Shown piece after piece: positions 9,761 through 64,000 of a DNA stretch of 64,000 nucleotides (its first letter is position 1; each line of letters opens with the position of its first letter). The translations under genes were made by a program, and so were the position numbers. A model generated the notes under the pieces. The model had not been told where the DNA came from, did not search any database, and saw only the letters and a list, made by a program, of their open reading frames with translations. The stretch lies in contig CAWDQF010000009.1 in assembly GCA_963804425.1 (NCBI GenBank), positions 92,666 to 156,665 of the forward strand. The letters run 5' to 3'. Source of the DNA: an uncultured Verrucomicrobiae bacterium. Lineage in GTDB: Bacteria; Verrucomicrobiota; Verrucomicrobiia; Chthoniobacterales; JAFAMB01.

Positions 9761-12700
9761 TCAAGAAACTACCAGGTCCGGGTAAGCTAGGCGCACTTTT
9801 ATTCTAGGACCTTCGCTGACGATCACCCCGGTACCGGCATAATTCGTGGGAGTGTATTCCCGACTGAATATGCCGGCGCCGAAGTCAATCGGCGGAAGTG
9901 GAAACCGCGCGACGTTGGTGACGATTAATCCGTTGCGCGGATCAACTAACCCCATCCGGTCGACAGCAGCGAGTCCTCGCTGGGTCCGTAACTTATCGAT
10001 CATTGCTGAATAACGGATGAAAGTTGTGGCGTCACACCGGCGAATCTCATCAGAGATCCGCACCGCCAGTTGCCCGATCGAGGCATTCCGTACTGCTTCA
10101 TTTGATAGACGGATTAGCGCCGGTGCTGAAGCGTTACCGAAAAATGCCGGTGACAATTCGGGTATGATCCGGCGAAAATCGATCGGACAAGCCAATGTCA
10201 ACTCTCCGGAATCTTCAGGAAGCGAACGCGCATAGGTCTGCCATACTAGAGCGGCAAGCACACCATTCTCGGTAAGCCGGACACGTGTCTCGGCGTCCGC
10301 GCCTTTCCGCGCTTCGGCCAAGAGCGACTCCGGATCGATATGAAGCGTCTCGATCCGCTGGGTCGTTGGGTCAAAACTTGGGTCAACCGGTGTAAGATTC
10401 ATTTCTGCTTCGCTTGCTGAAATCTTGTCGCCCTGTTTTTCCTGATAGATCTTTGCTAAACGTGCGAGTATCGCCCGAGAGTGATCCGGGACCTGGAAGG
10501 GTTCTGACCGGCTGGCGGCCGCCCAGGCCGAAAGAAAATAGTAGTAACTGTAACCGTCCGCGATTGCATGCGAGACGTTCACACTCAACAGACTGCCACG
10601 CTCCAATTGGATCAACCTGAACTTCGCCAGCTTCTCGCTGGCCAACAATGGATTGAACGCGACCCGGAAAGATTCGAATGTAGCCGGTTCATCCTGTTGA
10701 GGAAGCGAGACCGCTTCACCACAAACGATTTCAGCGAAATCAGGAGTATCCGACGATTCTGCGATCACGTACTCGCGATCCCCGTCGGGTACAAGCTTTG
10801 AGTTAATTGGATAGAACTCTTTGGCGACTCGCTCCAAGCCGGTCTTCAGCCGTTGGAAATCTAAACGATTTTCAAAGTAGTATAGAACCTGAATGGCTAA
10901 CCGACGCGGATCAACAAAGAGATAATCGGTGGGCGCCAACTCGAGCCTTCGGCGTAATTCAGCGGTTCCACCGAGCCGGGCAATCGAGATTCCGTTAGTC
11001 GAAATTGCTTGGTCTCGCCGCTCAATCAAACGTTCTCTTTGGTTCGAAGTTCGTTCGATCAAATAGGCGGCAAGCGACTCGATTGTCGGGTACTCAAAGA
11101 GCAATGTCTGGGAAAGCTCACCGAAATCCTTTGCTAAAAGTTGGCTGAACTCGACCGCCAAGATGGAATCGAACCCATAGCTCTCAAGCGACTCCGCCGG
11201 CTTTACCTGCCGCTCTTCCAGTCTCATGACCGTCGCAAACACTCTGGTGAGATAGGCTATCAGTTCCGTCTTCGAGGTTCCCGGCTTTGGCTCCTCGCCC
11301 CTAGCTCTGGCCGTCGACTGGCAGGACTGGGGTTCTACCCGTCCCGCCAATAACCGCGTCCGAATCTTCTCTCTGTCACCAACCCCAGTCCAAACCTGCA
11401 CCAACTCGCTCGCCAGAGCGTACTCAAAGAGCTGCAATCCTTGGTTCGGCTCCAACAACTGCAGTCCGAGCGCCGCGGCCCGATCTGTCTCGAAGTTTCC
11501 GCTCATTCCTCCACCACGCCAAAGCGGCCAATTAATCGATAGGGTACGACCGGAACGCTCTCCGTTACGTCGCAATTCTTCACGTCGATGGGCAAACGCA
11601 TCGAGGTAGGCGTTGGCATAAGCGTAGTCGCTCTGGCCGGCGTTCCCCAACAACCCCGCCATCGAGGAGAAGACAATAAAGCAGTCGAGCCGTTCCTGGA
11701 CGGTGGCTGCATCAAGAGCCTCTGCGCCCCTGACCTTGGGTCCTAGAACCGCCCCAAAATCCGCTGAAGTCTTTGACCAGATCAGTCCGTCGCGCAACAC
11801 ACCGGCTGCGTGAACTACGCTGTTGATAGTGCCGTAGCAATTTTTGACGTAATCGACCGCTTTCTGTGCTCCCTCCCAGGTGCTGATATCGGCACTAACA
11901 TACGCGGCATTCCGCCCGAGATCTCGCAGAACCGGTTCGTCCAGGCTCGATCGGCCAGCAAGAACTACGCGCGCATCATATCGTTCAATGAGATATCGGG
12001 CAAAGATACGGCCCAAACCACCTGCTCCTCCGGAGATCAAATAAACGGCGCCACGCCTCAGTGCCGGCTGATCAGCGTTAGAAACGGAAGCCGTTTCTAA
12101 GCTCCGGACCTCGCGCCGACCAGCCAAATAGCGCACCTCTAGTTCCGCATTTTCTAGCTCCGGCAACAGATCAACAGATTCGCTATCTATCCCGATTGTC
12201 TTTAGCTGCAGATCAGGTTGTTCCTGTAGAAGGGTCTTAGCATAGCCGCCGACCGCTTCGAAAGCCGGGATGCCAACCGGATAAAGGAACGCAATCGGTC
12301 TCCTTTTCTTGGCCTTCAGAAGAGCTTGTACCAGCAGGTGGACCGAAGACACTCCAGACGCCAGCGCCTCGTCCATGGTAGGCGTCGGACGCGACCAGCG
12401 ATGAATCACCCGAGCAAACTCGGTTTCTTGAACAAGCCTTGCGTAATCGGCACCGTCTTCGCGACGAATTGTGACCGTGTCTTCCGAACGCTGGTAGCAA
12501 TCGCCGCAAATCACTCTTACGGTCGCGACTTCTTTCTGAGACAAGGTATTCGCCAGTTCGGTCTGATCATCGAAGAGCAATAAGGGTCCCTTCATCGACG
12601 TCCCGTTCGTTGCAACTGATTCAGACTGCGACCAGCGAGGCGTGAAGAAAAACGGTTCCGCTTTGCCAGTCTGCGCCCGGCGGAGACTCAATCCCAAGAT

Positions 12701-64000: not shown

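Follow-up and report, generated by a model that had tools for sequence, protein, structure and literature searches.

A probable palmerolide-type assembly line with a divided adenylation domain in an uncultured Chthoniobacterales-like bacterium

Does the very large polyketide/peptide assembly line found in an uncultured Verrucomicrobiota bacterium represent an orphan pathway, or does it belong to a family that has already been described? The locus lies in a stretch of 64,000 nucleotides (nt) of contig CAWDQF010000009.1 (assembly GCA_963804425.1), hereafter called the window. An ORF scan revealed three open reading frames (ORFs) on the minus strand, which contain 12 ketosynthase (KS) domains and form a trans-acyltransferase (trans-AT) assembly line of roughly 54 kb. 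A first-pass annotation of the sequence could fit the order of its domains into no characterised pathway. On this point we came to a different result: between the glycine module and the terminal domain, 10 of 12 modules follow the order of the published palmerolide (pal) biosynthetic gene cluster (BGC), with which the window also shares accessory genes (PMC8739492). We consider it likely that the window holds most of an intact palmerolide-type trans-AT assembly line, combining polyketide synthase (PKS) and nonribosomal peptide synthetase (NRPS) modules, from an uncultured Verrucomicrobiota bacterium of Chthoniobacterales-like affinity. The cluster is not an orphan but a new, uncharacterised relative of the palmerolide pathway in a different verrucomicrobial order.

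Palmerolide A inhibits the V-ATPase potently and with selectivity for melanoma. We know of no genetic source for it other than an uncultivated Antarctic ascidian symbiont, and to our knowledge its pathway has never been tested by experiment.

The assembly line and the palmerolide cluster

ORF A, which is palA-like, extends on the minus strand from 58412 to at least 63976 (at least 1862 amino acids, aa). Its frame stays open to nt 64000 with no upstream in-frame stop, and its first visible residues already lie within an enoylreductase (ER) of the medium-chain dehydrogenase/reductase (MDR) type; ORF A is cut N-terminally by the edge of the window. ORF B (29086..58428, minus strand) has 9780 aa when read from its listed start, TTG at 58428, the true start probably being the ATG at 58419, and ORF C (9761..29074, minus strand) has 6437 aa. 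No stop codon occurs inside the 54-kb cluster, and unbroken ORFs of 6437 and 9780 codons cannot have arisen by chance. Internal duplication of modules is not recent, the top self-match being only 70% at the nucleotide level. No Rfam family was found in the window.

The domain order of ORF A is ER - KS1 - CP - C - Acore, where CP is a carrier protein, C a condensation domain and Acore the core of an adenylation (A) domain. ORF B opens with the small subdomain of the A domain and reads Asub - CP - KS2-cMT-ACP - KS3-DH-KR-cMT-ACP - KS4-KR-ACP - KS5-ECH-ACP - KS6-DH-KR-ACP - KS7-DH-ACP - KS8-LLM-KR, with cMT for C-methyltransferase, ACP for acyl carrier protein, DH for dehydratase, KR for ketoreductase, ECH for enoyl-CoA hydratase and LLM for luciferase-like monooxygenase. 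ORF C begins with 240 residues without a family match and goes on with ACP - KS9-DH-KR-ACP - KS10-KR-ACP - KS11-DH-KR-ACP - KS12-DH-KR-ACP - PF02458 transferase.

A self-BLAST with one KS as query returned exactly 12 KS domains, and in the alignment all 12 keep the Cys/His/His triad, in agreement with the first-pass annotation. Each KS was also said to be followed by a flank ending in LPxYPFxxxRYW. We indeed observed, after each of the 12, matches to KAsynt_C_assoc, RhiE-like or CurL-like linkers together with the motif LPxY(P/A/T)Fxxx(R)(Y/F/C)W, the exact LPxYPF being present in only 10 of the 12 flanks (KS5 has LPGYAF and KS11 has LPGYTF). Pfam scans of 13 module-sized pieces (E<=1e-3) gave no match to Acyl_transf_1, which upholds the claim that no AT is embedded; the sole GHSxG string in the megasynthases sits within the C domain. 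The module-by-module Pfam scans of the megasynthases likewise detected no thioesterase (TE). The features by which a trans-AT system is recognised were thus all found, namely KS modules without an integrated AT, a free-standing AT in the cluster and, behind each KS, a flanking subdomain that is an AT-docking remnant. These KS, Pfam and motif checks bear out both the earlier domain inventory and the trans-AT call: one Gly-type NRPS module, two cMTs, an in-line ECH, an in-line luciferase-like monooxygenase, an MDR-type ER and a BAHD-like terminal domain are all present.

Our comparison with pal is based on the published descriptions of its architecture, motifs and accessory genes (Avalon et al. 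2021, PMC8739492; Murray et al. 2021, PMC8636102). Five copies of the pal cluster are carried by Ca. Synoicihabitans palmerolidicus, an ascidian symbiont of the Opitutaceae (PMC8739492; PMC8636102). There, palA ends with C-A(Gly), and the carrier of module 2 opens palB with an Ile in its (D/E)xGxDS(L/I) motif (PMC8739492). The window likewise has, in a trans-AT context, KS-CP-C-A(Gly), a gene break after the A domain and the cognate carrier (ELGFDSI) opening the next gene. The following pal modules are KS-DH-cMT, KS-DH-KR-cMT, KS-(DHt)-KR, KS-ECH, KS-DH-KR, KS-DH-KR, KS-LLM-KR, KS-DH-KR, KS-KR, KS-DH-KR and KS-DH-KR, with a non-TE condensation-like end (PMC8739492). Compared with modules 3-14 of the published pal BGC 4, the window shows the same domain set in 10 of 12, its module 3 being without DH and its module 8 without KR.

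The likeness extends to finer features. Both systems contain two cMTs, an in-line ECH, an in-line LLM and KR within one module (KS8-LLM-KR in the window) and a terminal HxxxD acyltransferase-like domain that is not a TE. The pal KRs are L-type in module 5 and D-type in module 11 (PMC8739492), and the window has an L-type KR (LRN) at module 5, which corresponds to the lactone-oxygen module of palmerolide, and a D-type KR (LRD) at module 11. In pal, two ATs follow the core genes directly and are accompanied by a SyrD-like ABC transporter with the motif GGNGSGKST and by Band7 (PMC8739492), and a DUF697 gene adjoins pal BGCs 1, 3 and 5 (PMC8739492); tandem ATs right behind the last PKS gene, a SyrD-type ABC transporter with GGNGSGKST, Band7 and DUF697 all occur in the window as well. 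Both hosts are verrucomicrobial. Since so many rare features in the same order go beyond reasonable coincidence, we read the locus as a palmerolide-type assembly line.

The glycine module and its divided adenylation domain

The visible part of ORF A consists of the MDR-type ER (63137-64000), which stands ahead of KS1, then KS1 itself (61769-63025, its flank reaching to 61274), a carrier protein with the motif GFGSL (60983-61174), the C domain (59603-60871) and the A core with motifs A1-A7 and the Gly code (58415-59524). The small A subdomain (58120-58419) stands at the start of ORF B and is followed by the carrier protein with the motif ELGFDSI (57796-57990), all on the minus strand. KS1, the KS that feeds the NRPS module, has EAHGLSS in place of HGTGT, its triad still being Cys/His/His, and the same variant is present at residue 1538 of the ORF A homologue in L004, a related metagenomic cluster; KS1 may be a transfer-only KS.

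The motifs of the A domain read FDIAAL...LIQGTP...LCGGE...NMYGPTETTIW, then ...K, which is supplied by ORF B. The specificity code, approximately DILQLGMIWK as read by hand from the sequence, is of the glycine type, an assignment that leans on what we take to be the Stachelhaus positions. The first-pass annotation was right that a Gly-type NRPS module is present, and it needs one correction: the A domain is shared between ORF A and ORF B. ORF A ends ...YRTGDLVRYV-stop straight after motif A7, and ORF B resumes with motif A8, the two overlapping by ATGTATGA (58412..58428). The gene break cuts the A domain between A7 and A8, and the usual xPDGx hairpin loop is absent. We infer that the two halves reassemble via the strands of this hairpin.

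We observed the same split in L004 (about 11120-11160), where ...YRTGDLVRYV* is followed by the next ORF, with the overlap ATGTTTGA. In the window and in L004 alike, the downstream ORF begins with M(Y/F) and the overlap has the form ATGnnTGA. ORF A and its L004 homologue are 64% identical over all 1862 aa (homologue residues 917-2775); judged from this alignment, about 916 aa (2.75 kb) of ORF A probably lie beyond nt 64000. L004 shares this split at an identity of only 64%; the split is therefore a conserved gene boundary, and neither a faulty assembly nor a recent frameshift. The position of the break also agrees with the described palA/palB boundary (PMC8739492). A HMMER search with Asub-CP against 1.84 billion representatives was dominated by multi-module NRPSs, and the frequency of the split is not readable from these matches.

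Modules 3 to 13, the terminal domain and the flanking genes

All modules of ORF B and ORF C lie on the minus strand. Module 3 (54331..57738) contains KS2 (56440-57738), a cMT (54802-55308) and an ACP (54331-54531). Neither DH nor KR was detected in it, and a Pfam scan at E<=5 of the stretch separating KS2 from the cMT (55279-55980) gave no family, which ruled out a hidden DH at this place. Module 4 (48559..54186) contains KS3 (52882-54186), DH (51553-52341), KR (50308-50844), cMT (49165-49476) and ACP (48559-48744). It is followed by module 5 (44830..48369), with KS4 (47074-48369), an A-type KR (45301-45852) and an ACP (44830-45021). In the KR alignment, the KR of module 5 has LRN instead of LDD, which makes it A-type, and the remaining KRs have (L/I/F)(R/Q)D, the B-type pattern.

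Module 6 (41536..44670) is the site of beta-branching and consists of KS5 (43339-44670), the ECH (41977-42687) and a single ACP (41536-41733), which reads DSVSGVEF. The ECH matches NF005496, the 'polyketide synthase' ECH, with 297 bits (cut-off 215). Module 7 (37063..41268) has KS6 (39994-41268), DH (38668-39435), a B-type KR (37483-38037) and an ACP (37063-37251). Module 8 (33904..36930), which is without KR, has KS7 (35584-36930), a DH with intact His and Asp (34228-35031) and an ACP (33904-34101). The related cluster on a 430-kb ENA contig (L003) has DH-KR-ACP at this position, and module 8 of the published pal cluster is likewise DH-KR. Because the module ahead of the LLM module is DH-KR-ACP in L003, the absence of the KR in the window is probably a derived loss.

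Module 9 (28151..33738), the alpha-hydroxylating module, spans the boundary between ORF B and ORF C, with KS8 (32428-33738), LLM (30772-31701), KR (29338-29874) and ACP (28151-28348). The LLM matches TIGR04020, the MupA/Atu3671 family, with 460 bits (cut-off 244) and the PuwE structure 6ket with E=1e-105. One of its matches, on a 74-kb NCBI contig (P0038), was considered as a possible pal cluster and rejected; its trans-AT cluster is an unrelated one, in which the LLM is free and a KS-FMO occurs. Between the KR and the ACP of module 9, residues 1-240 of ORF C (28355-29074) match no Pfam or NCBIfam family. These residues were also considered as a degenerate methyltransferase remnant, an idea that we rejected: BLAST against both cMTs was not significant and Pfam at E<=5 gave only DRE2_N (E=0.16). 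A single-sequence AlphaFold model of them was unusable (pLDDT 37).

The KRs of modules 4 and 9 group together, with YAAGS and YAAAC, the other six having YA(Y/F)AN or YSYAN. Lys and Tyr are kept in every KR; these two have Ser or Cys for the Asn of the YAxAN motif and give no match to Beta-ketacyl_N, the structural subdomain. The catalytic His and Asp are kept in all six DH domains.

The last four modules belong to ORF C: module 10 with KS9 (26705-27988), DH (25334-26137), KR (24143-24688) and ACP (23678-23869); module 11 with KS10 (22223-23509), a B-type KR (20408-20962) and ACP (19961-20152); module 12 with KS11 (18491-19816), DH (17135-17935), KR (15989-16522) and ACP (15536-15736); and module 13 with KS12 (14039-15343), DH (12665-13465), KR (11516-12049) and ACP (11060-11254). 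ORF C ends with the BAHD-like (PF02458) acyltransferase domain (9764..10894), whose PF02458 match scores 71.6 bits (cut-off 22.7). The HxxxD motif and the DFGWG-like motif of the BAHD family were both found in it, as HAIADG at ORF C residue 6169 and as DFGAG near the C terminus, and its residues 59-391 align with PDB structures of plant BAHD hydroxycinnamoyl transferases (HCT; E about 1e-12). Its homologues are all fused to ACP/KR. We presume that this domain stands in for a TE as the release catalyst.

Two AT-like genes on the minus strand had been noted just downstream. Both are present, and the second is not a canonical malonyl AT. AT1 (8864..9748) is a free-standing malonyl-CoA:ACP transacylase with GHSVG, the malonyl-binding Arg and AAFHS, matching TIGR00128 (FabD) with 326 bits against an equivalog cut-off of 261. 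AT2 (7885..8940) is an AT-like protein with GQSLG, a Gln for the Arg and YPFHS, which in the family scan stays under every curated cut-off; it would be an acyl-hydrolase-like enzyme or a non-malonyl AT. The listed ORF of AT2 shares 77 nt with AT1, and translation of AT2 therefore probably begins further downstream than listed. Beyond the ATs lies, also on the minus strand, the SyrD-type cyclic-peptide-export ABC transporter (6229..7854; Walker A GGNGSGKST), which matches TIGR01194 with 328 bits (cut-off 286). The next genes are on the plus strand: a Band7/SPFH gene (4559..5626), which accompanies this cluster type in the related cluster L011 and in pal, a DUF697 gene (3706..4242), conserved in the related contigs L002 and L010, and an AcrB-type RND efflux pump (350..3496), used here as a chromosomal marker. 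No HMG-CoA synthase (HCS) cassette, carbamoyltransferase, glycosyltransferase or phosphopantetheinyl transferase (PPTase) is present in positions 1-9760 of the window. Nor does this region contain the polysaccharide-synthesis, lactone-oxidase or NMO genes known from pal.

From this gene content a pathway can be proposed, in which the colinear product sketch of the first-pass annotation (an N-acyl-glycine unit, C-methyls, one beta-branch and one extra oxygen) holds. By analogy with the relatives described below, synthesis of a short acyl starter would take place upstream of the window and involve an acyl-AMP ligase, ACP-KS-ACP and the ER at the window edge; the starter could be a beta-branched acyl reduced by the ER. 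KS1 and its carrier would hand the starter to the C domain for N-acylation of glycine, which would be activated by the A domain formed from the core on ORF A and the small subdomain on ORF B, next to its carrier. Eleven malonyl extensions would follow, with AT1 supplying in trans. Modules 3 and 4 are predicted to introduce C-methyl groups, module 5 an L-configured hydroxyl, module 6 a beta-branch (by the in-line ECH and an HCS cassette outside the window), modules 7, 10, 12 and 13 olefins, and module 11 a D-configured hydroxyl. For want of a KR, module 8 would leave a position that is unreduced (probably keto) or processed in some other way. By palmerolide logic, the in-line MupA-family LLM of module 9 would perform alpha-hydroxylation next to the carbinol that ketoreduction provides in this module. 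The terminal HxxxD domain would then release the chain by O-acyl transfer, with the hydroxyl of module 5 as the most likely acceptor; the product would be a macrolide with a ring of about 20 members, derived from an N-acyl-glycine and related to palmerolide. A saturated acyl cap and a C12-C13 unit that is 13-oxo or differs from palmerolide in another manner are expected in it. Proofreading, or the loading of a unit other than malonyl, is the probable role of AT2, and export of the product would fall to the SyrD-type ABC transporter.

Relatives, rival readings and known systems

Related clusters were found in environmental metagenomes (L001, L003, L004/L005 and L011). L001, from the Chthoniobacterales metagenome-assembled genome (MAG) SMAG_U1847, is colinear with window positions 21283-8350 at 66-73% nucleotide identity; L003 carries a homologous cluster; and L011 shows the same tail synteny, i.e. 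transferase, AT, ABC and Band7 on the opposite strand. L004 and L005 contain the head of such clusters. Their ORF A homologue of 2775 aa is ordered ACP-KS-ACP-ER-KS-CP-C-Acore; ahead of it lie genes for an acyl-AMP ligase and an FAD oxidoreductase, and the other strand of L005 carries a free KS, a trans-ER and a homologue of HMG-CoA synthase. This head region lends indirect support, by analogy, to the earlier expectation that the region past nt 64000 contains the loading end as well as the cassette for beta-branching.

Concerning the host, the AcrB protein is 99% identical (aa) to a protein on L010 (JGI 3300085328, Ga0679444_0011824), an 11-kb metagenome contig with the same MFP-AcrB-DUF697-Band7 neighbourhood as window 1-5626, which stops just where the cluster would begin. 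All named relatives of AcrB are Chthoniobacterales or Verrucomicrobiota, and the top matches of the LLM (83%) and of the terminal domain (63%, a GTDB genome) are in Chthoniobacterales MAGs. One further candidate relative, P0017, was rejected, as it sits in an unrelated, transposon-rich context. At L002 (JGI 3300061843, Ga0586918_0000226, locus 9432-17836) we found a decayed copy of the cluster, 83-91% identical at the nucleotide level. All that is left of it is the end of the last module, KR-ACP-transferase (window 13171-10107), together with both ATs, DUF697, a piece of the ABC gene and broken parts of AcrB; just upstream of these remnants are a PPTase gene and the remnant of a KS linker.

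These relatives bear directly on two other ways of reading the locus. If the window were simply a copy of pal from among the five published for Ca. Synoicihabitans palmerolidicus, and hence known, this would account for the near-identical module order and accessory gene types, and the GC content of the symbiont MAG (58.7%) is near that of the window (roughly 56%). We nevertheless regard this identity as extremely improbable. In the window the ATs are followed directly by the ABC gene and then, on the other strand, by Band7, DUF697 and AcrB, whereas pal has a long single operon past the ATs, with polysaccharide-synthesis and lactone-oxidase genes, ABC, Band7, PPTase, NMO, the HCS cassette, a glycosyltransferase and a carbamoyltransferase (PMC8739492). 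Moreover, pal has a KR in module 8, a DH in module 3 and a break between genes in module 4, and its module 1 is drawn without ER. The AcrB beside the cluster shows 99% identity to a protein on a JGI metagenome contig, and its named relatives are Chthoniobacterales and not Opitutaceae; L001 and L002, the relatives at the nucleotide level, come from the environment or from Chthoniobacterales. The cluster could also be a decaying or silent relic without product, in which the break between ORF A and ORF B is a disabling frameshift. The sister locus L002, reduced to the last KR-ACP-transferase, the ATs, ABC and AcrB fragments, points in that direction, as does the loss of the module-8 KR relative to L003. 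Against it, 54 kb run without internal stops and the catalytic residues of the KS and DH domains are all intact, the A-domain break and its ATGnnTGA overlap are conserved in a relative of only 64% identity, which is unexpected for a random frameshift, and a working split A domain has been demonstrated in corallorazine. We judge a relic to be very unlikely.

A weightier alternative concerns only the release step. The line may be palmerolide-like and its BAHD-like domain may pass the chain to an external alcohol, amine or water, giving a linear ester, amide or acid. The nearest solved structures are indeed those of plant BAHD hydroxycinnamoyl transferases, which act intermolecularly, and no evidence in the cluster fixes the acceptor. 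However, the domain is always fused behind the last ACP in its homologues, terminal C-like domains serve ester-forming release in the pal, phormidolide and basiliskamide precedents, and the hydroxyl made by the A-type KR stands at the same position as the lactone oxygen of palmerolide. Intermolecular release thus appears unlikely to us, without being negligible.

Several points weigh against the palmerolide-type reading that we prefer. Beta-branch-accepting ACPs usually carry a Trp, at the position where the ACP next to the module-6 ECH has a Phe. The window has an ER before KS1 and pal is drawn without ER in module 1; pal has the module-3 DH and the module-8 KR that the window lacks; and the pal gene break within module 4 is absent from the window. 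Furthermore, nothing behind the window ATs corresponds to the HCS cassette, carbamoyltransferase, glycosyltransferase or lactone oxidase that pal carries. Homology to pal is argued from architecture, motifs and accessory genes and not from measured identity, the assignment of the pal pathway is itself bioinformatic and not experimental, and macrolactonisation by the terminal domain as well as the identity of the starter are what we infer from the gene content. Finally, L002, a close relative, retains little of the cluster, and the locus is therefore evolutionarily unstable.

If the palmerolide-type reading is correct, an intact colinear relative and its diverged siblings in environmental Verrucomicrobia provide alternative templates for heterologous expression. 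They also offer natural module variants (an ER-bearing starter module, a module 8 without KR and a module 3 without DH) and a comparative set for the proposed roles of the in-line LLM and of the terminal acyltransferase-like domain. Going further, we tentatively propose, as a possibility towards which we do not yet lean, that free-living Chthoniobacterales make palmerolide-class N-acyl-glycine macrolides, candidate V-ATPase inhibitors, as an old verrucomicrobial trait, and that the family runs on a naturally split A domain working in trans. If this is true, the pathway is not a speciality of one Antarctic ascidian symbiont, and the cut in the A7/A8 hairpin is a natural cut site for NRPS engineering.

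Among known systems, pal remains the closest. Beyond the points already weighed, the two differ in that the window is Chthoniobacterales-like and environmental whereas the pal host is an Opitutaceae ascidian symbiont, that the window has a gene break in module 9, and that its terminal domain is a full-length BAHD-like domain, that of pal being annotated as a 133-aa truncated C domain. The trans-AT PKSs of phormidolide and basiliskamide resemble the window in that the TE is replaced by an ester-forming domain of the HxxxD acyltransferase superfamily; theirs, however, are PF00668 condensation domains, whereas that of the window is a PF02458 (BAHD) domain matching plant HCT structures. For the LLM, the mupirocin study of MupA supports alpha-hydroxylation chemistry in this family. 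MupA is likewise an FMN-dependent LLM of the NCBIfam family TIGR04020, which hydroxylates the alpha carbon of an ACP-bound thioester, but it is free-standing and works with a non-elongating KS0-ACP, whereas in the window the LLM is part of the megasynthase, with an apparently elongating KS on one side and a KR on the other.

The divided A domain has its counterpart in corallorazine, where Crz1/Crz2 form the lone reported functional A domain split over two genes (PMC11342130), active only when both proteins are present (PMC11342130). As in the window, a Gly-activating A domain is encoded by two adjacent genes, with the small subdomain and the carrier on the second protein. The Crz break comes after an inserted N-methyltransferase and was linked by its authors to the A8-A9 region, whereas the window break lies in the A7/A8 hairpin, without an inserted domain and in a trans-AT PKS context. 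The Acore/Asub gene split described here would thus be a second natural divided A domain, positioned differently from that of corallorazine.

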